Shown piece by piece: positions 5,096-44,747 of a stretch of 64,000 nt of DNA. Made by a program: the position numbers and the translations under genes. Numbering within the stretch: position 1 is the stretch's first letter; each line of letters starts with the position of its first letter. The DNA comes from an uncultured Candidatus Saccharibacteria bacterium (GTDB taxonomy: Bacteria > Patescibacteriota > UBA1384 > DTJR01), in NCBI GenBank assembly GCA_964580065.1, contig CAZOJE010000002.1, positions 2,978 through 66,977 of the forward strand, read 5' to 3'. A model generated the notes under the pieces. The model did no database searches, was not told where the DNA came from, and saw only the letters and a list, made by a program, of their open reading frames with translations.

Positions 5096-6551
5096 CACAT
5101 TATCGAAAAAAATCGAAGAAGTTGAACCGCTCGAAGGTGATTTAATTCGAATTTATTCATGCGGCCCGACAGTTTATGATTATGCTCACATTGGCAACTT
5201 GCGAAAATATGTTTTTGATGATTTGCTGGTTCGCACCTTAAAAAATTTCGGTTATCAGGTAAAAAGAGTAATGAACATTACAGATGTTGGTCATCTGACT
5301 AGCGACTCTGATACCGGCGAAGACAAAATTGAAAAAGGGGCACGCCGCGAAGGCAAAACGGCTTGGGAAATTGCTAAATTTTACGAAAAGGCGTTTTTTG
5401 AAGATATCGAAAAGCTGAATATTATCGAACCGGATATTGTGGCCCGAGCTTCGGAACATATCGACGACCAAATTAATCTTATAAAAAAACTCGACGAGAA
5501 AGGTTTTGCCTACAAAATAGACGATGGAATCTATTTCGACACTTCGAAATTGGCTGATTATGGCAAATTAGCCCATTTAAATACTGAAGGCCAGATTGAA
5601 GGGGCGCGGGTAGAAGCGAACCAGCAAAAAAGAAACCCAACTGATTTTGCGCTGTGGAAATTTTCTTATCCGAGTGGACGGAAATTTGATTCGTCGCGTG
5701 ATGACGCAAAAGCTCGTCGCCAAATGGAATGGAATTCTCCTTGGGGATTAGGTTTTCCGGGTTGGCATTTAGAATGTTCGGCAATGAGCGTGAAGTATCT
5801 TGGCCAGCCGTTTGAAATTCACACCGGTGGTGTCGATCACATCAGTGTTCATCACACTAACGAAATCGCCCAATCGGAAGCGGCCGAAGACAAGTCTTTG
5901 GCCAAATATTGGGTTCATAGCGAATTTGTGCTTGAAAACGGTCACAAAATGGCCAAATCCGAAGGCCATTTTATTAGACTTTCCGATTTAGAGGCGAAAT
6001 CTTTTGATCCGCTGGATTTTCGTTATCTTTGCTTGGGGGCCCATTATCGCTCAAAACTTGATTTTAGTTACGATTCTTTAGCGGGCGCCCAATCGGCTAG
6101 GCAGAAAATTGTTAATTTTGCCCGAAAAATTGCTACTGACAAGCAGTCATCAGAAGAGGAAAAGGCATTTTTTGTTGATAAGGAAAATGCCTTTGAGCAG
6201 GCGTTAGCAAACGATTTGGACACGCCGCGCGCTTTGGCGATAATTTTTGAAACAATTTCTTCAGCTTACGAATCAGCGTATTTTGGCAAGTCAGCCGAAG
6301 AATTTTTAGAAAAAATTGATGGTTATCTCGGTTTGAATTTAATGGCGAAGATGTTCTTTTACGATTCCGTAAGATCAACCGCAGAATTGCCTGAAGAAAT
6401 TATTAAATTAGCGCAAAAAAGAAATCATTTGCGTCAAGTTGGCGATTTTGCCCAAGCCGACCAGTTAAAGCAGGAAATTATCGCTAAGGGATATCGATTA
6501 GAGGACTCACTTGATTACGTAACTATTGACAAATCTGCCATTTTGAAGTAG
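5070..6551 (+). CDS. cysS: Cysteine--tRNA ligase
   Basis: HIGN and KMAKS(E) class-I motifs. The listed ORF starts at 4923, but the conserved N-terminus (MRKILEIYNTL...) starts at the ATG at 5070, which has an AAGAGG Shine-Dalgarno. Confidence 0.9.
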   Translation: MRKILEIYNTLSKKIEEVEPLEGDLIRIYSCGPTVYDYAHIGNLRKYVFDDLLVRTLKNFGYQVKRVMNITDVGHLTSDSDTGEDKIEKGARREGKTAWEIAKFYEKAFFEDIEKLNIIEPDIVARASEHIDDQINLIKKLDEKGFAYKIDDGIYFDTSKLADYGKLAHLNTEGQIEGARVEANQQKRNPTDFALWKFSYPSGRKFDSSRDDAKARRQMEWNSPWGLGFPGWHLECSAMSVKYLGQPFEIHTGGVDHISVHHTNEIAQSEAAEDKSLAKYWVHSEFVLENGHKMAKSEGHFIRLSDLEAKSFDPLDFRYLCLGAHYRSKLDFSYDSLAGAQSARQKIVNFARKIATDKQSSEEEKAFFVDKENAFEQALANDLDTPRALAIIFETISSAYESAYFGKSAEEFLEKIDGYLGLNLMAKMFFYDSVRSTAELPEEIIKLAQKRNHLRQVGDFAQADQLKQEIIAKGYRLEDSLDYVTIDKSAILK

Positions 6552-6574
6552 GGTTTGATGTTATAAATAAGGAG

Positions 6575-6598
6575 AGGAGGGAACCCTCTTCTTTTTAT
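6575..6598 (+). terminator. Putative intrinsic terminator of cysS
   Basis: 7-bp stem AGGAGGG/CCCTCTT (one G-U pair) with a 2-nt loop, followed by CTTTTTAT, 24 nt after the cysS stop. Confidence 0.5.
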
Positions 6599-6620
6599 AC
6601 GATTCACGGGCCCGATGAGC

Positions 6621-6634
6621 CAAAAGCAAATTAT
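6621..6634. repeat. Left copy of a 14-bp direct repeat CAAAAGCAAATTAT flanking the high-GC cassette
   Basis: An identical 14-mer is at 9383-9396; together they bracket the ~2.8 kb GC-rich insertion. Confidence 0.5.
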
Positions 6635-6778
6635 AATTTGGTTTTAAGATGAATAGAATTCTGGCTGGGATTTGGGAGAGTTGTCCCGACTTGGATCGGG
6701 ACTATGCCCCTCCTTCTCACTTCCTGGCTAGAATCCTGCTCGTCTTAATCTAGGCGAAGCATGTAATTTGAAAATTGA

Positions 6779-6901
6779 AGCTTCGGACAATTAAGCGCGC
6801 AAAGCCCTATCATTTATAAAGATGACTAAATTTCTTCTTGGAATTACTAATTCCAAGCTATTTGGGGTCAAGGGCGTTTGTTCGTTTAGTTGTCCGAAGC
6901 T
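6779..6901. repeat. 12-bp inverted repeat (AGCTTCGGACAA / TTGTCCGAAGCT) separated by ~100 nt, just upstream of the GC-rich cassette
   Basis: Arms at 6779-6790 and 6890-6901 are exact reverse complements. Inside is a 7-bp hairpin, TTGGAAT/ATTCCAA. Confidence 0.45.
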
Positions 6902-6980
6902 CGAAACTAAGGGGTAGATTAAAATCGCCCCGCACGCCGAAAAGGCGGAAAGCAAAAAGCCGCCAATTCGGCGGCAAGGA

Positions 6981-8141
6981 GTGGTTGAAGTGACGAAGTA
7001 TTTCGCCGTGGTCGTGCTCCTTGCTGTGGTTACGACATTTGTACCACAGCAGGCGATGGCGGGAGGGGTGTTTGAGCTCGTCTTTGGCTCCAAGTCGAAG
7101 ACGGTTCAGGCCTTTGCCCCCGGGGTCATTGGGGCTTTTTCGGCCCGTGATCCGAGAGACTTACACGAGGTCAGCTTTGACCTCGACGGCTCCGGCCGGC
7201 GGGTGGTGCTGGATACCGGCATCCCCGTTGAGAAGGGGCTAGTACTGGTGGGTATCCTTGCTGCCAGCACGGCGGCGAGAAACGCCCAAAAAGCCGTTCT
7301 ACGCCTAGATCTCGATCCGAAGGCTTTTGACGTTGTGCCAGGGCCGAGATCAGGCGAGGATCAAGAGGCGTGGTTGGCCTACGCAGTCACCTGCGCCAGA
7401 TACAAGGTTGGGGCAGGCGGGAGGGCCTTCAAGCCCTTCCAGACGGCGTCACCACCATTCGTATTCGTCGTCGATTCGAGTACGCTGCTGAACTCGGCGC
7501 ACTCGATCGACATTTATCTGGAGTGCGGGGGGACGGGAGCGTCGTTCTTACTGCCCTTCCGGGTTGTTCAGTTGGCTGATGAGACTGGACAACCGATCCA
7601 GAGCGAGTACCAAAAGCCGCTGCCGGCTGGTGCTTACTCTGGCGGAGCAGTTCCGCCCAGTCCCGCTGCTGGCGACTTTGCTGCGCAAGCGCTGGCAAGC
7701 GCCCCCTGGAAGGCGAGGATCAAGGAGGCGGCCGCCAAGCACGGCCTAAACCTGGATACCTCCTCCGAGAAGGACTTTAGGCTCGGCGGAACGTTTCGCT
7801 GGCCTAAGGATAAGGGCCCTTCTCCCTTCATCGTCATTTGCCTCGGCAAGGACGGCCTCCCCTTGCCGCAGGGGAAGATTTCCCTCCTTCTCATGGATAG
7901 AGACAAGATCAGGAGGGAGATCAAGGGAGATGTTATCGACGGAATGTTTGTTTCTTACGATGTTCCGTCGATCAAGCAGGTCGCGTTCCGGGTGAACGGG
8001 CAGATATTGTCCGTTAATATCGTTCCACCCGGGCACGACCCATACTTCGTATGGCAAACGCGTCCCCACGACAAGACGGTGGGGACGTATGTTGTACTCG
8101 TCCAAGACAAGGGCGAGTGGCGCATACCGCGATCTAACTAG
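6981..8141 (+). CDS. Secreted hypothetical protein with a signal peptide, on strongly GC-rich foreign-looking DNA
   Basis: GTG start with an AAGGAG Shine-Dalgarno. The signal peptide ends ...AMA|GG. Codon usage is GC3-rich, unlike its neighbours. No known domain recognised. Confidence 0.6.
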
Positions 8142-8146
8142 AGGAG

Positions 8147-9283
8147 GTGCGCAAGATGCGCACGAAGATTGTCGCATTGACATTTGTCGTGGCCATGGTT
8201 GCTTCGACCGCCATGGCAGATCGGCCGTCGTACGTTCGTGAGGTGAGGGTGGCCCTGACGCACGAAAGGGTCATCCAAGATCCTCGCTTCGCCGCTTTCG
8301 CTCGGCAGTTCGGCTTGTGCGAGAACGTCTTCACGAGTTTCCCGCACAAGCAGGCGAATCTCCCGTCGGAAACGACGGGAAAGTTTCGCTGGGGTGTCGA
8401 CGACTCCCAGGCCAAGGAGTGGGGAGCCGTTACACCGCAGGAGTCGGCCTGTTTCCCGGGGGTACTGTACGACCTCGGGAACGGCTGGTTCCTGCACGCC
8501 CAGCTAGGAGCACTGGGAAACGCTATCCTGTTCTACGGGCGTTTCCCGGGAGCGGGTCCAGCTGGTCCTGCCGGCCCACAGGGTCCTGCCGGTCCTCCTG
8601 GGCCTAAGGGCGATGTTGGTCCGATGGGTCCGGTTGGTCCTACCGGTGCTACTGGAGCTACTGGTCCGGCTGGTGCTCCTGGACCGGCGGGTCCCAAGGG
8701 CGACGCGGGCCTGCAGGGGGCTCCCGGCACGGACGGGGCCGATGGTGCTCCCGGGCCTAAGGGCGACAAGGGAGATACTGGCCCACAGGGTGTCCCCGGA
8801 GCTACGGGCGCTACGGGCGCCAAGGGTGATACGGGGCCTGCTGGTCCCCCTGGACCAGCCGTTGCCGCCGCGCCAGCACCGGCGCCGGCTCCTCCCGAGA
8901 AGCCCAAGAAAAAGCGGGAAGCGCCCTGTGTTTGGGAGCCGCAACCACTTGAGCGGCCGTGCCAGCCACTGGTACAGAAAATCGTCGTGGCTGGCATGCG
9001 CAATGACCGCCCCTTTGGAGTTGACGTTCACGGGGCGCAGCCAATCATCATCCAGCAACCCGGCCGGCCGGGCTTGCTGGACTATGTGGTGCCTCTTGGC
9101 GCGGCCTATCTCGGCCGGGCCGAAGGCAGCCGTTACTACTTGTCGGCCACCGGCGGTACGGCTGTCGCCACCGGTGGCCAGGGCGGATCGGCTTGCGTTG
9201 GGCCGATCACGAACGTGAGCAGCAACACAAACTCCAACGCAAATAGCAACTCTAACGCGTTGGCCGCTAGTGCCGGCAACTAG
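8147..9283 (+). CDS. Secreted collagen-like (G-X-Y repeat) protein, on GC-rich foreign-looking DNA
   Basis: GGAGG Shine-Dalgarno; signal peptide (...STAMA|DR); about 34 uninterrupted GXY triplets ([20 protein letters not shown]...). A Pro/Ala linker follows, then a C-terminal globular region ending in an Asn/Ser-rich tail, [12 protein letters not shown]. Confidence 0.7.
8555..8860 (+). repeat. Collagen-like triplet repeat coding region (~34 x G-X-Y)
   Basis: Direct read of 9-nt/3-codon periodicity GGN-CCN-NNN in frame with CDS 8147-9283. Confidence 0.7.
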
Positions 9284-9302
9284 AGGCCAACGCATTCTCA
9301 TG

Positions 9303-9335
9303 GGGCGGCGGCGAGTGACAAGCTCGCCGCCGCCC
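9303..9335. terminator. GC-rich 13-bp perfect hairpin 20 nt after the collagen-like gene; factor-independent terminator-like without a U-tract
   Basis: GGGCGGCGGCGAG tgacaag CTCGCCGCCGCCC. Confidence 0.4.
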
Positions 9336-9382
9336 TACCGCACTGATTAATTTTCAGCAGAGATAAGCTCTTGAGAAATAAT

Positions 9383-9396
9383 CAAAAGCAAATTAT
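9383..9396. repeat. Right copy of the 14-bp direct repeat CAAAAGCAAATTAT
   Basis: Identical to 6621-6634. Confidence 0.5.
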
Positions 9397-9449
9397 GGTG
9401 AAAATTAGTTCGAGGGGAGCTCACACCTAGGTCGAAAATAAAGAGCCAA

Positions 9450-10118
9450 ATGGCTCAAAGAGGTAAAATGAAAAAAGCAATGACGATTGTTGCAGGAATG
9501 GCCTTAATTGGCTTGGCTACTCCTGTCTACGCCGCAGACACTGCCACTGATTTAACCAATAAAATCATGGCAAATGTCTCGAGCGACCTTCAAAAATCGG
9601 GGATCAAGGCGAATCTTGCAGGTTCGGCTAACCCGTGTTGCATAAGTGGTGGCACATGCTGCGCTAATGGTGGCAGCAATATTACCAATATCAACACTAA
9701 TAACAATACTTCGAGCAATTCGAATAGCATTGCGGTTAATGTTGGAAGCAAGACCTCTGACACTGGCGGAGCAGCCGCTTCAGCCGGTGGTGGAGCTTCA
9801 GCTGGTAATGGGGCCGCCGCTTCAAGTTCAGCCGCTGCCGCCGCTGGCAATGCCAGCGCTTCAGCGTCTGGAGCCGCTTCAGCCGGTACAAATGGAGCTT
9901 CAGCTTCTAGCGCCGCAGCTGCTTCAGCTGGTACAACTAAAGCTAGTACGACCGCAAAGGTTGCTGTTGCCAAAAAGACTGTTAGCAAACCGGCCGAATT
10001 ACCAAAAACCGGTTTTCCGGTTGCACCTGCTGCGGTCGCTTCAGTGGCCGTTAGCGGAGCTTCAGCTGCCGCTTTAGCAATCAGAAAGAAGCTCGCTTTC
10101 ATACGAGAGAATCTTTAA
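9450..10118 (+). CDS. LPXTG-motif cell-wall-anchored surface protein, a sortase substrate
   Basis: N-terminal signal peptide; a Cys-rich CCISGGTCCANGG motif; an Asn/Ser-rich tract; an Ala/Ser/Gly-rich low-complexity region. The C-terminal LPKTG (nt 9999-10013) is followed by a 23-aa hydrophobic segment and RKK, a classic sorting signal. Confidence 0.65.
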   Translation: MAQRGKMKKAMTIVAGMALIGLATPVYAADTATDLTNKIMANVSSDLQKSGIKANLAGSANPCCISGGTCCANGGSNITNINTNNNTSSNSNSIAVNVGSKTSDTGGAAASAGGGASAGNGAAASSSAAAAAGNASASASGAASAGTNGASASSAAAASAGTTKASTTAKVAVAKKTVSKPAELPKTGFPVAPAAVASVAVSGASAAALAIRKKLAFIRENL

Positions 10119-10143
10119 TTGCTCGACTGCCGCACGAAAAAAA

Positions 10144-10175
10144 GAAAAACTCCGGTTCGCCGGAGTTTTTCTTTT
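10144..10175 (+). terminator. Intrinsic terminator after the LPXTG gene; bidirectional in form
   Basis: AAAAACTCCGG ttcg CCGGAGTTTTT, a perfect 11-bp stem with an A-run before and a T-run after. Confidence 0.65.
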
Positions 10176-10210
10176 TGTCTTTTTCGGGAAAAAACGATAC
10201 AATTACCCTG

Positions 10211-11182
10211 ATGAAAAAAGAAGAATTAGCCAAACTGCTAAAAATTGACGATAAAACTCGTGAAGCCGAGGAAATTCAGCAAAAAATGCTCGAAGAGGGC
10301 TTTTGGAATGCTCGAGAATTATCCGCTAAACTAAGCCAGCGATTGGCTTATTTAAATGATTTTTTAACTAAATTTGCCAATAGCGAAACCGAAGCAGAAT
10401 TAGCCGATTTGGAAAAAGATGCTTTGTTCGACGAAGAATTTGACGAAATGGCAACTATTTTATCAATTCATGCCGGTGCCGGCGGTACCGAAGCGCAAGA
10501 TTGGGCCCAAATGCTTGAAAGAATGTATCTGCGTTATTGCGAAAAGGAAAATTTCTCGGCGACAATTCTTGATTCGTCCGAAGGCGAAGAAGCAGGTATA
10601 AAAAGTTGTTCGATCAAAATCGACGGGATTAATGCGTATGGTAAGCTAAAATCGGAAAATGGCGTTCATCGGCTAGTCCGAATCAGCCCGTTTGATGCCG
10701 ATAAAGCCCGCCATACATCTTTCGCTTTAGTGGAGGTGATTCCGGAATTTGACGATATCGGTGATGTTGATATTGATGAAAAAGATCTCAAGGTTGACGT
10801 TTTTCGCTCTGGCGGACACGGTGGGCAATCGGTTAACACAACTGATTCGGCGGTCAGAATCACTCATTTGCCAACCAAAATTACGGTTTCGGTGCAAAAT
10901 GAGAGATCGCAGCTGCAAAATCGCGAAACGGCCATGAAAATCTTAAAAATCAAGCTTAAGAAAAAAATGCTTGATAGTCAAAAAGAAAAAGAACGCGACA
11001 TCAAGGGTGGCCATATTTCGGCTGAATGGGGCAATCAAATACGATCGTATGTCTTGCAACCGTATCAACAGGTAAAGGATCATCGTACGCAATTTGAGTC
11101 AGCCAATCCCGAAGCAGTTTTGGATGGCGATTTAAATGGATTTATTGACGCTTATTTGAAGTGGCAACACGAAAAAAATTGA
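10211..11182 (+). CDS. prfB: Peptide chain release factor 2
   Basis: SPF tripeptide and GGQ motif (SGGHGGQSVNTT). The ORF is uninterrupted from TTG 10175; ATG 10211 (MKKEELAKLL) is the likely start. No internal in-frame TGA programmed +1 frameshift site is visible. Confidence 0.85.
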   Translation: MKKEELAKLLKIDDKTREAEEIQQKMLEEGFWNARELSAKLSQRLAYLNDFLTKFANSETEAELADLEKDALFDEEFDEMATILSIHAGAGGTEAQDWAQMLERMYLRYCEKENFSATILDSSEGEEAGIKSCSIKIDGINAYGKLKSENGVHRLVRISPFDADKARHTSFALVEVIPEFDDIGDVDIDEKDLKVDVFRSGGHGGQSVNTTDSAVRITHLPTKITVSVQNERSQLQNRETAMKILKIKLKKKMLDSQKEKERDIKGGHISAEWGNQIRSYVLQPYQQVKDHRTQFESANPEAVLDGDLNGFIDAYLKWQHEKN

Positions 11183-16533: not shown

Positions 16534-19014
16534 ATGTTGAATAATCAACTATATAGTGAGGGTCCCAATTTTGTCGTGATTTTTCTGTGCGTATTGGGCG
16601 CTGTAGTATTTTTTGTCTTACTATATTTTTTGTATCGAAAATATCTTAAATCTAAATTGACTAAAAGGGCAGACGACTTAATTATTTTAGAAGTAAAATT
16701 GCCAAAAAAGTACGAAAAAGAAGAGTATGAACAGCAAAAAACTATCAGGGACATAACGGCGGGGGCGGATCAATTTTTTACGGCCCTGTCTTCTTTATGG
16801 GTAGATGGTTTTAAAGGATTGTTCTTAGGTCAGCCAGTCGTTTCATTTGAATATGTCGCGAAAGACCACGAAATTATGTTTTATGTTGGCGTACCAAGAG
16901 CGGTTGCCTCATTAGTTGAAAAACAAATCCAAAGTTTTTACCCTAGCGCCAACGTCGAACCAAGCGGGGATTTTCGCGTTTTTAAGGAGGGGCTAAAAAT
17001 TGCTTACGGTAATTTGCGACTGTCGCGCAGTTATATATATCCTATTCGAACATACACCGAGCTGGAGAATGACTCGATTGCAAACATTACCAATGTTTTG
17101 TCGAAAATTGGCGAAGATTCAAGAGCGGTTATTCAAATCTTGGTTAGACCAGCCAATCAAAGCTGGCGTGGTCAAGCGGATTGGATGATTAGGCGGATCC
17201 AAGAAGGAAAAGGCACGGCATTTGGGGTGAGTTGGTGGAACAAATTGGGATATTATGCCGGTCAATTATTCTCGGCGGCGGCGACTAACAACAAAGACCA
17301 ACAATTAAATAAAATAACACCAATGCAGGAGGAAACGATTAAATATCTCACGGCAAAAAGTGCAAAGCCAGGGTTTGATGTTCAGATAAGATTAATCAGC
17401 TTGGCCAAAACAGCTCCTGAAGCCGAAACCAATCTTAAAAACCTTGCTTCGGGCTTCTCGCAATTTTCTACACCTGACCGCAATGGTTTCAAATTAGTGC
17501 GCGCCCACGAAGAAAAGTCGTTTTTAACTCATTTTATTTTGCGATCTTTCATTGGTTTCAAAAAGAACCTTCTTAATTCCGAAGAATTAGCTAGCATTTA
17601 CCATTTTCCTTCAGAGCACATTGATACACCGGGGATTAGGTGGTTTAACGCCAAGCGCGCTCCAGCGCCGGCCAATATGCCTAAAGAGGGGCTAATATTG
17701 GGCAAAAATGTTTATCGGGGCGAAGAAACTATCATTCGTCTTAAAGAGACCGACAGACGCCGCCACCTTTATGCCATTGGTATGACCGGCACGGGTAAAT
17801 CAACATTTTTTGAATCGATGATTTTGCAGGATATAAGAGAGGGGAAGGGGCTGGCCTTGTTCGATCCACACGGCGAATTGGCAGAAAGCATCTTGGATAA
17901 AATCCCCAAGGAACGCGCCGATGACGTAATTTATTTTGATCCGGCCGACACCGAAAGACCGATGGGTCTTAATTTGCTCGAATGGAAAACTAAGGAGCAA
18001 AAGGATTTTCTTGTTCAAGAAGCTATTCAGATTTTTTATAAATTGTTCGATCCGAACGGCCAAGGATTTGTTGGGCCGCAATTTGAACATTGGATGAGAA
18101 ATGCGGCCTTGACTTTAATGGATTATCCCGAAGGCGGCACGCTTATCGAAATACCAAAACTTTTTATGGACGACGGTTTTCGACAGGAGCGAATTAAAAC
18201 AATCAAGGATAATACGGTGAAGGCGTTCTGGGAAGAACAAATGGCCAAAACATCCGATTTTCATAAATCGGAAATGTATAATTATTTTATTTCTAAATTT
18301 GGCCGTTTTATGACCAATATTACGATGCGCAATATCATCGGCCAAACGCATAGCGCTTTTGATTTGCGCGAAGCAATGGATTCGGGCAAAGTCTTGCTGA
18401 TTAACTTGTCAAAGGGAGAGATTGGGGAAATAAATAGTAATCTTTTGGGTATGATTTTCGTGGCCAAACTTTTCACGGCCGCTTTAAGTCGAGGCGATGT
18501 TGAAGAAAATGAAAGGCGGGATTTTTATCTTTATGTTGATGAGTTTCAAAATTTTGCCACCGATACTTTTTCTTCAATTCTTTCCGAAGCGAGAAAATTT
18601 CGTTTAAATCTCAATATTACTAACCAGTACATTGCCCAAATTCCCGAGCCAATTAGAGATGCGATCATTGGTAATGTTGGTTCACTGGTTTCATTTAGGA
18701 TTGGTGTGCCGGATGCGGAATTTATGGCTAAAGAATTTGAGCCGATTGCTAATCAAACTGACCTTAACCAAATAGACGCTTACAACGCCTATGCCAAGAT
18801 TTTAATTGATAATGCTCCGACCAAAGCATTCAGCATGCAAACAATTAAGGATCCGACGGAAAAAAATGCTAAGCTTGGGCAGGCAATGCAGGAGCTGTCG
18901 CGATTGAAATATGGCCGCGATGCTTCTATTGTAGAAAGTGAGATAGGCGAGAGACTTAAGACCGTAGAAGTGCCAGAGCAGAAAGACTTTGTAAGGGAAG
19001 CGGGAGTTAAATGA
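16534..19014 (+). CDS. VirD4/TraG/TraD-like (type IV coupling protein-like) P-loop ATPase, membrane-anchored, with a ~380-aa N-terminal domain of unknown function
   Basis: N-terminal TM helix; Walker A (GMTGTGKST); DPHGEL; Walker B (YLYVDEFQNFATD). A paralog of the next gene. Confidence 0.6.
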   Translation: MLNNQLYSEGPNFVVIFLCVLGAVVFFVLLYFLYRKYLKSKLTKRADDLIILEVKLPKKYEKEEYEQQKTIRDITAGADQFFTALSSLWVDGFKGLFLGQPVVSFEYVAKDHEIMFYVGVPRAVASLVEKQIQSFYPSANVEPSGDFRVFKEGLKIAYGNLRLSRSYIYPIRTYTELENDSIANITNVLSKIGEDSRAVIQILVRPANQSWRGQADWMIRRIQEGKGTAFGVSWWNKLGYYAGQLFSAAATNNKDQQLNKITPMQEETIKYLTAKSAKPGFDVQIRLISLAKTAPEAETNLKNLASGFSQFSTPDRNGFKLVRAHEEKSFLTHFILRSFIGFKKNLLNSEELASIYHFPSEHIDTPGIRWFNAKRAPAPANMPKEGLILGKNVYRGEETIIRLKETDRRRHLYAIGMTGTGKSTFFESMILQDIREGKGLALFDPHGELAESILDKIPKERADDVIYFDPADTERPMGLNLLEWKTKEQKDFLVQEAIQIFYKLFDPNGQGFVGPQFEHWMRNAALTLMDYPEGGTLIEIPKLFMDDGFRQERIKTIKDNTVKAFWEEQMAKTSDFHKSEMYNYFISKFGRFMTNITMRNIIGQTHSAFDLREAMDSGKVLLINLSKGEIGEINSNLLGMIFVAKLFTAALSRGDVEENERRDFYLYVDEFQNFATDTFSSILSEARKFRLNLNITNQYIAQIPEPIRDAIIGNVGSLVSFRIGVPDAEFMAKEFEPIANQTDLNQIDAYNAYAKILIDNAPTKAFSMQTIKDPTEKNAKLGQAMQELSRLKYGRDASIVESEIGERLKTVEVPEQKDFVREAGVK

Positions 19015-21746
19015 AAAAGCTAAACGTGCCTACAAGCGCTGATAAAGTTTTGATGCGTTTGATGGTGCCGAAAAACAACGAAAAAACGCCGGCGGCGGCG
19101 GAATTGTTTTTTGCCGCCTTGCATGGCGTTTATAATTACTCAAGCCGAATTCAGCCCGAAATGAGCTTTGAAATAGTCTCAATCAACAAGTTTATCCAAT
19201 TTTACTTTTGCGTGCCGAGAGAACTGAAGGAATTTGTTGAAGGCCAGTTTTATGCTCAATATCCAACCGTGGAAATTTCCGCCGCCGATGATTATACCGA
19301 GAAAATTTTTGAAGAAAAATATGCCGTAGGATATGATGTTCAGACAACTAAAGAAGACGTTTATCCGATAAAAACTTTTCAAAGTTTTGAAGTTGACCCT
19401 TTGTCGGGTATCACAAGTGTCTTGAGCCAACTAAGTGCCAATGAAGAAGTTTGGATACAAATTTGTGTTTCGCCGGCTTCCGATCAGTGGCAAAAAAAAG
19501 CGACTAGCTTTGTAAAGGCGATAAAATCCGGCAATGATCCGAACGAACCGATTTGGAAAACAATTCTTGGCGGTTTGGGTACTATTGCTAAAACTGTTAG
19601 CGCTCCGCCGACGCAAACGGCTTCCGCACCAACACAAGTAGATATCAGCGGCCCGGCCGCTTTAGCAATGAGTGGTATTGAAACGAAGTCAACAAAACTC
19701 GGTTTTAAATCAAAGATAAGAGTCATATCTTTGTCGGGCGACTATCATCGCGCCAGAGCTAATGCCGGTTCTGTTGCAGGTGTTTTGAAGCAATTCACTC
19801 AAACGAATATGAACGGTTTTATACAGGGCAATATTGTTGAGGGTGCGCCAGTGGTAGATCTTTATAAACAAAGAACAGTTGGCTCGACGGGATATATTTT
19901 GAACATAGAGGAGCTGGCAAGCATTTATCATCTTCCGGGCGAAAGTGTTGAAACACCGGCAATGGATTGGGCTGGGAGTAAAAAAGGTGAGCCGCCGATG
20001 AATTTGCCGCTGATAAATGATTTGCATGATTCGCAGGATACGACTATTGTCGGAAAAACAGATTTCCGAAATGAGGAAAGAAATTTTGGTATTAAAATCA
20101 AAGATAGGGCTTTGCATGTGTATGTTTTGGGAAAAACCGGTACTGGTAAGTCAACCCTTTTAAGCAATCTGATTATCGACGATATTATAAAGGGCCGCGG
20201 CGTTGCCGTTGTCGATCCGCACGGTGATTTGATCAATGACGTTATGGAATATATTCCCGAAAGCCGAATCAACGACGTGGTCTATTTTTCACCGGCTGAT
20301 CGTGATTATCCCATCGGCTTCAATCTGCTAGAAAGTGTTGATCCCGAATATAAAAACATTGTTGCTTCAGGCATTGTGGGGATTTTTAAAAAAATATTTG
20401 GCGAATCGTGGGGACCGCGTTTGGAATATATTTTGCGCAACGTTGTTCTTGGACTTCTTGATTATCCGGGCGCAACGATGTTGAGCATTATCAAAGTCCT
20501 GACCGATACAAAATTTAGAAGGGGAGTAATTGAAAAAATTAGCGATCCGGTTATTAAGGACTTCTTTCTTAATGAATATGAAAAGTATGATCAAAAATTT
20601 AGAACAGAAGCCGTAGCGCCGATTCAAAATAAAGTCGGACAGTTTCTTTCGTCTACAATTATTAGAAATATTGTTGGACAGGAGGAAAGCACGATTGATA
20701 TTCGTAAATTAATGGACGAACAGAAAATTCTGCTTGTCGATTTGTCCATGGGTAAAATCGGTGAAGATAACAGCGCACTTTTGGGCTCAATGTTAATCAC
20801 AAAAATTCAAATGGCGGCAATGAGTCGAGCTGATATGCCCAAACAATTGCGTGTGCCGTTCTATCTATACGTTGATGAGTTTCAAAATTTTGCGACAGAT
20901 TCCTTTGCAGTTATTTTATCTGAAGCAAGAAAATATGGCTTGAGCTTAATGATGGCTAACCAGTACATTGCCCAAATGCCGGAAAATGTGGCTAATGCAG
21001 TCTTCGGCAACGTTGGAACAATTATCGCTTTTCGAGTGGGCGCCCAAGATGCCGAGGGATTACAAAGAGAATTTATGCCGGTATTTGAAGCTAATGATTT
21101 AATTAATCAGGATAATTACAATATTTATATTAAAATGGCAATTGACGGGATTACCAGTTCGCCGTTTTCGTCTAAGACAATTTTGCCGATTTACGAAAAA
21201 ACCGACAATATTGCCAACATTACCGAGCAATCACGCATTAAATATTCTAAACCTCGCGAAGAAGTAGAAAAGCAAATCAGGGATAAAACGGAAAACATCC
21301 AAACGCCTACGGAAATTTTGGGGAGCAAAAAGGACGAAAATCCAATTGTTAAAGAAGATAATAAGACAAGTCCAGATACGAGCGTGAAAGAAGACAAAAC
21401 AGAAGATGCTAAAAATGGATTATTCGTCAGCGATATGAACGATAAACGAGAAGATCAGCATGAAAAAGACACAGAAGAGAGTGGGGAACAGAGCCAGGAT
21501 AACGACGCTGATATTCCTGAAGAATTAAAGAATGCTAAAACAGCCGAGGATTATGAAATCAACAAATGGTATTTTCTAACGCGAACGGGTTTTAGAAAAG
21601 TAATTGGCAGAGAAGAAGAACAAGCGCCAAAACGAGCAGAGGAAATGGAAACGAATAAAAATGAGCCGGCAAACACTGCAAGTGTGGGAGCGACGATAGG
21701 GCAAAGTAGCTCGTCTGACACACAAGAAATACCCGAAGCACAATAA
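19011..21746 (+). CDS. Second VirD4/TraG/TraD-like ATPase paralog, with no N-terminal TM and a ~170-aa acidic disordered C-terminal tail
   Basis: Motif order matches the upstream gene: LGKTGTGKST, DPHGDL, YLYVDEFQNFATD, NQYIAQ. It overlaps the upstream gene by 4 nt (ATGA). Confidence 0.6.
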   Translation: MKKLNVPTSADKVLMRLMVPKNNEKTPAAAELFFAALHGVYNYSSRIQPEMSFEIVSINKFIQFYFCVPRELKEFVEGQFYAQYPTVEISAADDYTEKIFEEKYAVGYDVQTTKEDVYPIKTFQSFEVDPLSGITSVLSQLSANEEVWIQICVSPASDQWQKKATSFVKAIKSGNDPNEPIWKTILGGLGTIAKTVSAPPTQTASAPTQVDISGPAALAMSGIETKSTKLGFKSKIRVISLSGDYHRARANAGSVAGVLKQFTQTNMNGFIQGNIVEGAPVVDLYKQRTVGSTGYILNIEELASIYHLPGESVETPAMDWAGSKKGEPPMNLPLINDLHDSQDTTIVGKTDFRNEERNFGIKIKDRALHVYVLGKTGTGKSTLLSNLIIDDIIKGRGVAVVDPHGDLINDVMEYIPESRINDVVYFSPADRDYPIGFNLLESVDPEYKNIVASGIVGIFKKIFGESWGPRLEYILRNVVLGLLDYPGATMLSIIKVLTDTKFRRGVIEKISDPVIKDFFLNEYEKYDQKFRTEAVAPIQNKVGQFLSSTIIRNIVGQEESTIDIRKLMDEQKILLVDLSMGKIGEDNSALLGSMLITKIQMAAMSRADMPKQLRVPFYLYVDEFQNFATDSFAVILSEARKYGLSLMMANQYIAQMPENVANAVFGNVGTIIAFRVGAQDAEGLQREFMPVFEANDLINQDNYNIYIKMAIDGITSSPFSSKTILPIYEKTDNIANITEQSRIKYSKPREEVEKQIRDKTENIQTPTEILGSKKDENPIVKEDNKTSPDTSVKEDKTEDAKNGLFVSDMNDKREDQHEKDTEESGEQSQDNDADIPEELKNAKTAEDYEINKWYFLTRTGFRKVIGREEEQAPKRAEEMETNKNEPANTASVGATIGQSSSSDTQEIPEAQ

Positions 21747-32943: not shown

Positions 32944-33345
32944 CTACGACGCTCCGACGATGAACGCGATCCTCGTGATGCTCTTGACCCTGTATGGGCA
33001 GTGCCCCTTCGACGTACTTTGAGGAGATAGGGTCGCGGTAAGCTCGACGTAGCGGCCATCACCCATCTTTATCCAACCGATAATCCTGCCGACAAATGCG
33101 GATCCGACAAACACCTTCTCTCCCTTCCGCTTCCCGTTCCTGCTGGCGATGGTGCCGATCAGATGGTTAGCACCTTGCTGAAAGTACCGGGGAGGACGAA
33201 CCGTGACTTCGGCACGGAAATCCGGCTTTCTCTTTCGAGCTGTTTGGACACGACGATGCAAATGCGTCTGGGGCTTGCTGACTGGCTTACTTCCGTGAGA
33301 CACGAAATATCCCTCCTCGAATGTGGTCGTGAGATGGCCGGTCAA
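32944..33345 (-). other. ~450-bp GC-rich foreign-looking patch carrying a 133-codon basic ORF on the minus strand; unresolved between a horizontally acquired small CDS and a structured RNA
   Basis: GC is visibly much higher than the flanks. The minus-strand ORF (MTGHLTTTFEEG...) spans the whole patch with no recognised domain, and a minus-strand terminator hairpin lies at its 3' end. Confidence 0.3.
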
Positions 33346-43964: not shown

Positions 43965-44747
43965 TTGACAAAGGTAGGCCAAGAGGTACGATTTTGTCAG
44001 TATTACGCGCGAACCTTGAAAGGAGGTTCGGTCAAAGTGGAACGGTCGAAATCCGAGCAGGTCAGGTTTCGTATCGAAGCCGCTAAGGGTAACGTGGTTT
44101 TTGAACGCAAGCCCCTTTGGTGGCTTCCCGGACTTGTGCTGGGTTTCAACATAGCATTGCTTTGTGTGGGCATTGCCATCTTCTACAAGATAACAGTAGC
44201 TATCATGGTAACGCTTGCCTTGGTAGCAGGGAATGTCCTTGCAATGGTTGTTATCGACGTCAGCTTGCGTCGAAAATGCACGCTGGCGTCAATCCGCGAT
44301 CTGGGACAAATCGCTGTTAATGATGACGAAGATCTCGCTGATGAGATTCTGTCTGTTCTTATTCCGCTTGCATTAAGGCAGAGCGGAAATCAAACGATAG
44401 CATTGCGTTCGTTGCTGTCGTTTGTTCACGTGAACGAACTGTCGCCAGAGATCGTTTGTCAGCTGTCAGACGATCTTCTCCTTACATCACCAAGAGCGCA
44501 TTTCCTTCTTGGTCACTTTTTTGTGGAGGTCGACGACAGCAAGAGAGCGAAAAGGCATCTCGTTCTCGCTTTGAATGGCAAAGGCGAGACAGCCGCAAAA
44601 GCTGTCAAGCTACTATCTCATCTCGTTGACCAGGACACACTCGAAGATCTCGTTGACCAAACGGATCGGCCCGCTTGCGCTAAATCGCAACTTCTTGGCG
44701 CTGTGCAGAAGTTGTACGTACGGCCGAAGCCGAGTTCCGCCTCTTAG
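43965..44747 (+). CDS. Hypothetical membrane protein on a mid-GC foreign-looking patch
   Basis: Composition is distinctly richer in G+C than its neighbours; TTG at ORF start, true start uncertain; two TM helices near the N-terminus. Confidence 0.4.
   Translation: MTKVGQEVRFCQYYARTLKGGSVKVERSKSEQVRFRIEAAKGNVVFERKPLWWLPGLVLGFNIALLCVGIAIFYKITVAIMVTLALVAGNVLAMVVIDVSLRRKCTLASIRDLGQIAVNDDEDLADEILSVLIPLALRQSGNQTIALRSLLSFVHVNELSPEIVCQLSDDLLLTSPRAHFLLGHFFVEVDDSKRAKRHLVLALNGKGETAAKAVKLLSHLVDQDTLEDLVDQTDRPACAKSQLLGAVQKLYVRPKPSSAS

Follow-up and report, generated by a model that had tools for sequence, protein, structure and literature searches.

The window analysed here, a 64-kb stretch of contig CAZOJE010000002.1, contains a gene for a collagen-like protein, referred to as ORF2. 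This gene belongs to a compact cassette consisting of a structured RNA and three open reading frames (ORF1, ORF2 and ORF3), which is flanked by cysS on one side and by prfB-ybaB-pth-rplA-rplJ-rplL-tgt on the other. Nine lineages carry this four-part cassette at one and the same site 5' of prfB, and we have high confidence that ORF2 is a secreted, collagen-like member of a cassette which is conserved and vertically inherited. The host lineage is uncultivated and probably resembles Patescibacteria or the candidate phyla radiation (CPR), as judged from gene content and weak similarity.

Organization of the collagen-like locus

The features of the locus, all on the forward (+) strand, are listed below.

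6621–6637 (+): copy 1 of a 14-nt direct repeat, CAAAAGCAAATTAT, running into TATAAT (6632–6637); likely promoter of leader-ORF1-ORF2
6645–6748 (+): conserved RNA of ~100 nt, folded as a rod-like hairpin with 36 bp; candidate 5' leader of the ORF1-ORF2 operon
6925–6985 (+): GC-rich hairpins of the proximal leader, directly 5' of the ORF1 ribosome-binding site (AAGGAG)
6990–8141 (+): ORF1, secreted protein of 383 aa with a signal peptide (...PQQAMA/GG); first gene of the operon
8156–8218 (+): ORF2 signal peptide, read in the sequence; Sec-type, without lipobox Cys, putative cleavage before D
8219–8554 (+): ORF2 N-terminal globular domain (N-domain), ~113 aa; family-defining, unnamed
8555–8860 (+): ORF2 collagen-like region, 34 triplets (Pfam Collagen)
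8861–8926 (+): ORF2 Ala/Pro linker (APAPAPAPP), followed by a basic patch
8927–9157 (+): ORF2 conserved C-domain (C..C...KIVVAGMR...), from multi-lineage alignments
9158–9280 (+): ORF2 C-terminal Gly-rich segment, Cys and Asn-rich tail; proposed docking peptide
9303–9335 (+): perfect 13-bp GC hairpin after ORF2; probable operon terminator, which closes the GC-rich block
9383–9399 (+): copy 2 of the 14-nt repeat, running into TATGGT; part of a promoter-like site (9371–9399, TTGAGA-17-TATGGT) 5' of ORF3
9468–10118 (+): ORF3, 216 aa, with a signal peptide; proposed sortase-anchored fibre base
9636–9746 (+): ORF3 Cys-rich, Asn-rich head (aa 57–93), followed by an Ala/Ser/Gly-rich spacer
9999–10013 (+): ORF3 LPKTG motif, followed by a hydrophobic segment and an RKK...FIRENL tail

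The ORF2 open reading frame extends from 8147 to 9283 (+). Its likely start is the ATG at 8156, 9 nt inside the frame, which is preceded by AGGAGG at 8141–8146. Gene callers used the same start on independent contigs, and no exact match featuring the GTG start at 8147 was found. The coding region (8156–9283, +) specifies a secreted product of 375 residues. A preliminary description of this DNA had reported ~34 uninterrupted G-X-Y triplets together with a signal peptide, an N-terminal domain, an APAPAPAPP linker and a C-terminal region, all of which are present, the N-domain measuring ~113 residues and the C-terminal part 118. The G-X-Y run (residues 134–235, 102 aa; nt 8555–8860) comprises exactly 34 triplets without interruption, and matches the Pfam Collagen model PF01391 at 54.3 bits (E = 1.1e-14), above the cutoff of 27.2. 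Pro, at 22.5% of the residues in the run, occupies 17 of the 34 X positions, Thr is found in 7 Y positions, charged residues account for 12%, and GPKGD-type pairs are present. At the DNA level the repeats are degenerate (59–85% matches), and the frame is not disrupted within the repeat. Collagen triple helices rise 0.286 nm per residue, and the 102 residues are predicted to form a triple helix ~29 nm long.

The 118-residue C-terminal region is composed of a ~77-residue conserved segment and a downstream Gly/Asn-rich low-complexity tail. The protein ends in ...NALAASAGN and features neither an LPXTG motif nor a hydrophobic segment at the C-terminus.

Relatives of the N-domain were identified by an exhaustive phmmer search against 1.84 billion representatives, which yielded 24 matches, 19 at E<1e-10. 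Word-index searches with the N-domain or the C-terminal part returned nothing, missing even the protein itself, and the family surfaced by the exhaustive search only. Family members have a near-uniform build, in which a signal peptide is followed by the N-domain, a G-X-Y run of 0–34 triplets, a middle part that varies, a C-segment that is conserved, and a tail rich in Gly, Asn and Ser; the N-domain directly precedes the G-X-Y run in 18 of 20 members. The length of the run ranges across lineages from 0 to 35 triplets, and in L084 and L085 a ~190-residue Gln-rich insert takes the place of the linker.

An AlphaFold2 model of the N-domain, obtained from the 20-sequence alignment, is confidently folded as a monomer (predicted local distance difference test score, pLDDT, 88.2; predicted template modelling score, pTM, 0.82) and consists of short helices and a beta core of 6–7 strands. 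In contrast to the globular C-terminal head of the preliminary description, the domain that folds with confidence is the N-terminal one (pLDDT 88), and the C-terminal part is the ~77-residue segment plus low-complexity tail. A single-sequence model of the whole ORF2 is unusable (pLDDT 37.7). Foldseek comparisons of the N-domain model with PDB and BFVD gave no significant match: the best E-values were 0.13 (PDB) and 0.015 (BFVD), and the best template modelling (TM) scores ~0.44 when normalized by a short target and ~0.39 by the query. Faint and non-significant hints point to SH3b wall-binding-like folds (TM 0.33, E > 0.1). Profile searches, which had been proposed for the N- and C-domains, found no known PDB or Pfam relative, as the profiles of the N-domain, the C-domain and ORF1 retrieved only noise from both libraries (e.g. 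Gly-Ser linkers of single-chain variable fragments). The N-domain is thus a confidently folded domain without a match in current libraries. Because it abuts the collagen run, its position fits trimerisation and/or a binding head, and either or both are its probable roles.

Conservation, base composition and candidate leader RNA of the cassette

DNA of the locus is 100% identical in contigs of three other runs (SRR9878565, SRR9674389 and SRR9860463). The SRR9878565 contig (L001) is 19.3 kb long and crosses both junctions of the GC-rich block. A sister strain (ERZ795049, L088) carries a 35-triplet allele in which one block is rearranged; a metagenome scan for relatives returned nothing beyond one sister-strain contig. 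Since identical DNA occurs in independent assemblies and the frame is intact, the repeat is real and not an assembly artefact. An artefactual repeat and frame breaks, the two flaws contemplated in the preliminary description, were both looked for and neither was found, in keeping with the identical contigs of the three other runs.

The nine lineages that carry the cassette are the window, L083, L084, L085/L086, L090, L091, L092, L093 and L094. Contigs of ORF1 homologues all read cysS-ORF1-ORF2-ORF3-prfB. Five proteins of the N-domain family were looked up, and all five lie in the cassette, immediately 5' of prfB where the contig reaches it (the L094 contig stops within ORF3). The usual upstream order in these loci is dprA-topA-recR-x-cysS; L091 has a different upstream gene. 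CysS proteins of the cassette lineages are 53–66% identical, which implies that synonymous sites have long been saturated, and identity matrices of cassette and flanking proteins are roughly congruent. ORF1 homologues show 76, 43 and 42% identity, and an alignment of eight lineages covers 19–76% identity to the window protein; no match to ORF1 was found in Pfam, PHROG, NCBIfam or PDB sequences. Among the contigs of species-representative genomes scanned, the nearest CysS is 51% identical. In a Daviesbacteria metagenome-assembled genome recR adjoins cysS (recR 59%), and no cassette follows that cysS. The L085/L086 lineage derives from municipal landfill metagenomes.

Base composition sets part of the cassette apart. 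A block of ~2.4 kb at 59–75% GC, embedded in a region of ~40% GC, extends from the proximal leader to the terminator and corresponds to the coding part of the ORF1-ORF2 transcription unit. In the window, the GC content of third codon positions (GC3) is 0.687 in ORF1 (z = +5.3) and 0.662 in ORF2 (z = +4.9), against 0.384 +/- 0.057 in the other 60 open reading frames. The GC3 of ORF1 and ORF2 ranges from 0.54 to 0.76 in every lineage, whereas that of the neighbouring genes ranges from 0.24 to 0.46 in low-GC lineages; in one GC-richer genome the two genes reach 0.71–0.76 against 0.53–0.60 in the neighbours. ORF3 has a host-like GC3 in all lineages (0.386 in the window). The shared locus in nine diverged lineages and the high GC3 in each indicate an old, maintained regime and not a recent import, ORF1 and ORF2 being kept at a gene-specific GC3 equilibrium over long times. 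Candidate causes are GC-biased gene conversion at a recombination hot spot and selection on mRNA.

The first of these candidates follows from the mosaic pattern of divergence, which may link the GC3 regime to recombination. Between the window (7038–8220) and the sister-strain contig L083, ORF1 is 60–80% identical at the nucleotide level (76% at the amino acid level), the flanks are mostly 95–100% identical, and parts of the collagen run and of the C-domain show ~85% DNA identity. The pattern is reversed between L084 and L085, in which ORF1 and ORF3 are 89% and 93% identical, respectively, and the ORF2 N-domain is 59% identical. Such a mosaic suggests exposed surface proteins under diversifying selection or allele exchange.

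The candidate leader RNA starts 8 nt past the TATAAT of the first repeat copy. It is present in all lineages, in one copy per locus, just 5' of ORF1, even in L091. The copies identified outside the window are as follows.

L084: 1902–2005
L086: 125–228
L090: 6696–6798
L091: 6558–6663
L092: 6228–6329
L093: 5841–5944
L094: 4608–4706

The region 6646–6774 is 89% identical to L084, against ~70% for cysS DNA. The structure predicted by RNAalifold has 36 pairs, of which 12 are compensatory. A count of pairs across the alignment shows 97.2% of cells to be paired, with both bases altered in 13 pairs; the latter number was 5.0 +/- 1.5 in shuffled alignments, none of 500 of which attained 13, and did not exceed 6 in slid controls. 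A covariance model built on seven lineages recovered the RNA in the held-out L094 (E = 3e-8), between cysS and ORF1, and found no second copy in the window. Two internal sequences, GGAGAGUUG and GCCCCUCCUUC, are invariant, and within this core a Shine-Dalgarno-like GGAG pairs with a CUCC located inside GCCCCUCCUUC. None of the 4227 Rfam models matched 6645–6748 at E<=1 in a search of 6300–10400, and none reached its gathering score window-wide. Identity with signal recognition particle (SRP) RNA, 6S RNA or RNase P RNA is therefore rejected; a resemblance to the SRP RNA consensus was not seen either. The element is a candidate for a new cis-regulatory leader or small RNA. Hairpins equivalent to those at 6925–6985, with changed stems, are found in L084, L085 and L086, and a hairpin plus T-run is located at the terminator position in L084 and L085. 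ORF1 ends 14 nt 5' of ORF2 and no terminator separates them, in agreement with the earlier view that ORF2 is co-transcribed with another secreted protein.

Two explanations would remove the GC-rich block from the history of its host. One is that the block is an assembly chimera or a contamination, to which its anomalous composition and a short contig (L002, 7464–9347) that falls entirely inside it could point. The probability of this is practically nil, as independent assemblies refute it: both junctions are crossed by contigs of identical sequence that stem from other runs (L001, 19.3 kb, and L087), and diverged syntenic versions are present in eight further lineages from other studies. The other explanation, which matches the "foreign DNA" of the preliminary description, is a recent island acquired from a phage or a high-GC donor and carrying a tail-fibre-like or Scl/BclA-like adhesin. 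The sharp contrast between a GC content of 0.59–0.65 and the ~0.40 of the surroundings, the exact 14-nt direct repeat that brackets the block, and the match of PHROG tail-fibre families to ORF2 speak for it. We consider it very unlikely, and it is largely refuted by the finding that the cassette is syntenic and GC3-rich in nine lineages with CysS proteins as divergent as 53–66%. Moreover, the stronger PHROG matches (E up to ~1e-3) are all confined to residues 131–246, i.e., the collagen run and a few flanking residues, so that the supposed likeness to phage tail fibres does not extend to the non-collagen parts. ORF1, the N-domain and the C-terminal part have no tblastn match in 50,697 phage records (INPHARED), scans of IMG/VR with the N-domain, as a single sequence or as an alignment, returned nothing, and the N-domain fold has no significant BFVD match. 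A blastn comparison of the block with plasmids gave one 145-nt match (70%), located in the collagen region. Prophage genes, for which a look elsewhere on the contig had been advised, were not seen in the window: the neighbours are housekeeping genes, and the 27 window ORFs scanned against Pfam, all housekeeping or unannotated, include no phage, integrase or transposase gene. The two repeat copies (6621–6634 and 9383–9396), which are 100% identical, are kept in the sister strain and absent from the other lineages. As they overlap -10-like hexamers 5' of two transcription units and the cassette is ancient, the repeat is better explained as a promoter motif, and its interpretation as attachment sites or a target duplication is rejected. 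We infer that CAAAAGCAAATTAT is a promoter motif shared by the two units and that the RNA is the 5' leader of the ORF1-ORF2 mRNA.

The remaining genes of the window include those for SecDF, GAPDH, FtsZ/FtsA, a class II ribonucleotide reductase, an AddA-like helicase and VirB4/TraG-like ATPases. The window, which is densely packed with housekeeping genes, contains no tRNA gene, and no Rfam family reached its gathering score. Directly 3' of tgt, two adjacent genes (16534–21746, +) encode large ATPases of the VirB4/TraG/HerA type (DUF87, T4SS-DNA_transf, TrwB and TraG-D_C domains), and the pair is kept at the same place in relatives (DUF8128/DUF87 in L001, L091 and L093); it is a chromosomal secretion or DNA-uptake apparatus and not a plasmid. 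A GC-rich stretch of ~400 nt (32944–33345, -; GC 0.557) lies between two ordinary genes. Read as a 133-residue ORF it has a GC3 of 0.657 (z = +4.8); no Rfam match was obtained for it at gathering score or at E<=1, and it may represent either a structured RNA that has diverged or a small gene rich in GC. A 260-residue ORF at 43965–44747 (+) shows a GC content of 0.498 and a GC3 of 0.513 (z = +2.3), with a predicted membrane segment and no Pfam match.

Matching segments in ORF2 and ORF3

A homologue of ORF3 adjoins ORF2 in every lineage whose contig continues past ORF2. ORF3 is the sole LPXTG-like protein in the window, and by motif carries a tripartite sorting signal, LPKTG-FPVAPAAVASVAVSGASAAALAI-RKKLAFIRENL. 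A signal of the LP[KQE][TA]G type is found in its homologues in those lineages whose contig includes the ORF3 C-terminus.

The last 35–45 residues of ORF2 resemble, genome by genome, the stretch located just after the signal peptide of ORF3. In the window, the ORF3 head segment matched by the ORF2 tail is ITNINTNNNTSSNSNSIA. In L084, the tail SIDVNNRVQQITDVNSPINIGVNQAQSQSGAQAQ is matched by the head SIKVNNSVSQKTTVSNPVNISVSQSQSQSMSQAQ. In L090, 25 of 29 residues are identical between tail and head, which have in common the string NNLNNTNNI[AS]N[SN]ATNNTAVSVNQ[AS]QAQ. L092 and L093 feature poly-Ser followed by poly-Ala in tail and head alike, and INIANSNSN...SNAGN is found in both segments of L094, which had been held out. 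When tails and heads are aligned locally in an 8 x 8 matrix, the within-genome sum is reached by 2 of 40,320 permutations, i.e., the identity and the swap of the near-identical L084 and L085.

The similarity does not stem from gene conversion. Of the 25 residues shared by tail and head in L090, only 6 are specified by the same codon. The tail there has a GC3 of 0.79 and the head one of 0.34; the corresponding values in the window are 0.80 for the ORF2 tail and 0.45 for the ORF3 head. Because the codons differ, gene conversion is rejected as the origin of the match, which has been selected at the protein level. Cys residues near the motif are concordant in all eight genomes, being present in both partners in the window, L084, L085, L090 and L092 (in L092 the Cys is at position -46), and in neither partner in L091, L093 and L094.

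The simplest reading of these sequence matches is that tail and head meet in a homotypic contact which is under selection, is frequently locked by a disulfide, and would mount the ORF2 trimer on the wall-anchored ORF3. Whether ORF2 docks on ORF3 via the matched peptides is, in our estimate, an evenly balanced question.

A possible surface fibre and its relation to known systems

ORF2 resembles Scl1/Scl2 of Streptococcus, BclA of Bacillus and Lcl of Legionella in being secreted and in combining a long, Pro-rich G-X-Y run with non-collagen flanking domains. As in other bacterial collagen-like proteins, the number of repeats varies between strains (34 vs 35). The flanking domains, in contrast, are unrelated to those of Scl, BclA and Lcl. 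The NCBIfam models of Scl1 and Scl2 (NF038330 and NF038329) score 62.5 bits against a cutoff of 400 and 49.6 against 325, on the collagen run only, and the Lcl model (NF046116) scores 64.9 against 500. Unlike Scl, ORF2 has no LPXTG motif of its own, the signal being carried by the separate, adjacent ORF3, and the modelled N-domain, with its short helices and beta core, differs from the helical V domain of Scl. Pfam assigns only Collagen to ORF2, without C1q or BclA_C, and the N-terminus is a Sec signal peptide and not an exosporium leader.

The closest organisational analogue is the L-ENA cluster of Bacillus paranthracis, which encodes an anchor (exsL), a collagen-like tip fibril (l-bclA) and a fibre subunit (ena3A), and for which coupling of the collagen protein through a terminal Cys motif has been proposed (PMC11362473). 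Both are small clusters in which a collagen-like protein devoid of its own targeting signal is attached, or would be attached, to a separately encoded anchored structure, and in both the length of the stalk scales with the number of G-X-Y residues. Unlike L-ENA, the cassette has no Ena-core (DUF3992), ExsY/CotZ or BclA_C domain, the proposed anchor is of low complexity and of the LPXTG type, as opposed to a fibre of stacked rings, the docking segment is C-terminal and mirrors the N-terminus of the anchor, and the window shows no sign of a spore former.

The matched segments recall the amyloid signalling motif pairs of the fungal HET-s/NWD2 type and the bacterial BASS motifs (bioRxiv 10.1101/2020.01.06.895854). 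In those pairs as in the cassette, a motif of 20–35 residues recurs C-terminally in one protein and N-terminally in the product of the neighbouring gene, varies by lineage while matching within the pair, and is rich in Asn, Gln, Gly and Ser, a composition suited to in-register beta stacking. BASS and HET-s motifs, however, belong to cytoplasmic cell-death pairs of NOD-like receptors (NLRs) and effectors, whereas ORF2 and ORF3 carry signal peptides and the purpose proposed for their match is structural tethering. Pfam detects no NLR (NB-ARC/NACHT), Bell or cell-death effector domain in ORF2 or ORF3. A parallel also exists with the curli proteins CsgB and CsgA, in which a cell-bound protein shares sequence with a secreted partner that it could template or dock. 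Unlike curli, the cassette has no curlin repeats (no Pfam match), its envelope and anchor are of another type, and the similarity covers a short terminal segment and not the whole protein. In summary, the cassette belongs neither to Scl, BclA or Lcl nor to phage tail fibres or BASS, and in the model proposed below works like known bacterial collagen-like surface fibres.

A surface fibre, as the preliminary description had proposed, is the most reasonable reading of the secreted, collagen-like ORF2, and we regard it as likely that ORF2 forms one. A role in attachment to other cells is advanced only tentatively. We somewhat favour a model of a cell-surface fibre in which ORF2 supplies both stalk and head and is docked on ORF3, the fibre being encoded by an ancient, vertically inherited four-part cassette. 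In this model, the promoter at ~6621–6637 would drive a transcript containing first the hairpin RNA of 100 nt and then ORF1 and ORF2, and ORF3 would be transcribed from its own promoter bearing the same 14-nt motif. The three proteins would be exported by Sec. Three ORF2 chains would trimerise, nucleated by the N-domain, and the collagen parts would wind into a triple helix of ~29 nm. Sortase would link ORF3 to the wall at LPKTG, the Ala/Ser/Gly-rich region spanning the envelope, and the low-complexity tail of ORF2 would dock on ORF3, where a nearly identical segment forms the mature N-terminus. Tail and head may make contact by homotypic pairing of beta-strands, an Asn/Gln/Ser ladder locked by a disulfide in most lineages. 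As C-terminal docking on ORF3 places the conserved N-domain distally, this domain would sit at the tip and bind a partner surface. What the sequences show is the gene with its repeat, the family, the synteny, the compositional regime, the covariation of tail and head, and the RNA structure; trimerisation, sortase anchoring, docking, orientation and the adhesive role are what we infer.

Several points weigh against this model. The triple helix, the surface location and the ORF2-ORF3 contact are predictions made from sequence. No NCBIfam or Pfam model fired on the ORF3 sorting signal, and neither the window nor the related loci scanned (L001 and L090–L093) contain an ORF with the TLxTC signature of a sortase. 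The tail of the window protein scores 84 with the head of L091 and 82 with its own, and both segments are of low complexity, so that raw scores are partly compositional. The SH3b-like hints, if real, would permit the opposite orientation, with the N-domain on the cell wall.

A shared third factor, in place of mutual contact, could also recognise the matched segments. Tail and head would then be tags or substrates of a glycosyltransferase that modifies Ser/Thr/Asn-rich sequence, a dedicated chaperone or ORF1, or simply similar hydrophilic spacers, with no direct docking. The segments are indeed rich in Asn, Ser and Thr, or consist of poly-Ser and poly-Ala; the collagen run has 7 Thr at Y positions, and collagen regions of the BclA type are O-glycosylated at Y-position Thr; and ORF1, which is always co-encoded, has no assigned role. 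A shared enzyme, however, would select a class of sequence and not the lineage-specific, near-identical strings seen in L090 and, as INIANSNSN, in L094. Furthermore, the kind of motif (Asn-rich, Gln-rich or poly-Ser/Ala) and the presence of Cys switch in both partners together, and we consider this explanation unlikely. Quite unlikely, in our judgement, is that ORF2 is an envelope or matrix component, such as a nap, an S-layer-like coat or an inter-cell tether, whose N-domain binds the wall of its own cell and whose tail self-associates in an amyloid-like manner. Asn/Gln-rich tails are typical of self-associating segments, and the best, non-significant fold hints of the N-domain are SH3b wall-binding domains. 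BclA, moreover, forms a nap and not single fibres (PMC11362473). The fold hints, however, have E > 0.1 and TM <= 0.39, and the tail matches ORF3 specifically, which already supplies a wall anchor. The N-domain, in addition, is the best conserved part and is also episodically replaced (59% identity between L084 and L085), as expected for a domain in contact with a ligand.

Attachment to other cells is probably central to the lifestyle of these organisms, and to our knowledge nothing is known of their surface structures. The four parts of the cassette may represent a new surface-fibre module, likely of a CPR-type clade, with a collagen stalk, a new head, a "same-sequence" peptide zipper to a sortase-anchored protein, a new RNA leader, and a GC3 in two exposed genes that selection or biased gene conversion, and not import, holds far above that of the genome; we raise this as a possibility, with reservations. 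Within such a module, the zipper would be, by analogy, an extracellular structural counterpart of amyloid-motif pairing.

A fixed set of three genes and an RNA is common to deeply diverged members of an uncultivated lineage, and contributes a covariation-supported RNA motif and a confidently folded domain, both without library match. The cassette is a counter-example to the notion that a GC island means recent horizontal transfer, and the GC3 regime of ORF1 and ORF2 is a natural system for telling biased gene conversion from selection on mRNA. The matched tail and head peptides suggest that the fibre is mounted on a wall-anchored base, a mode of mounting not described for collagen-like proteins.

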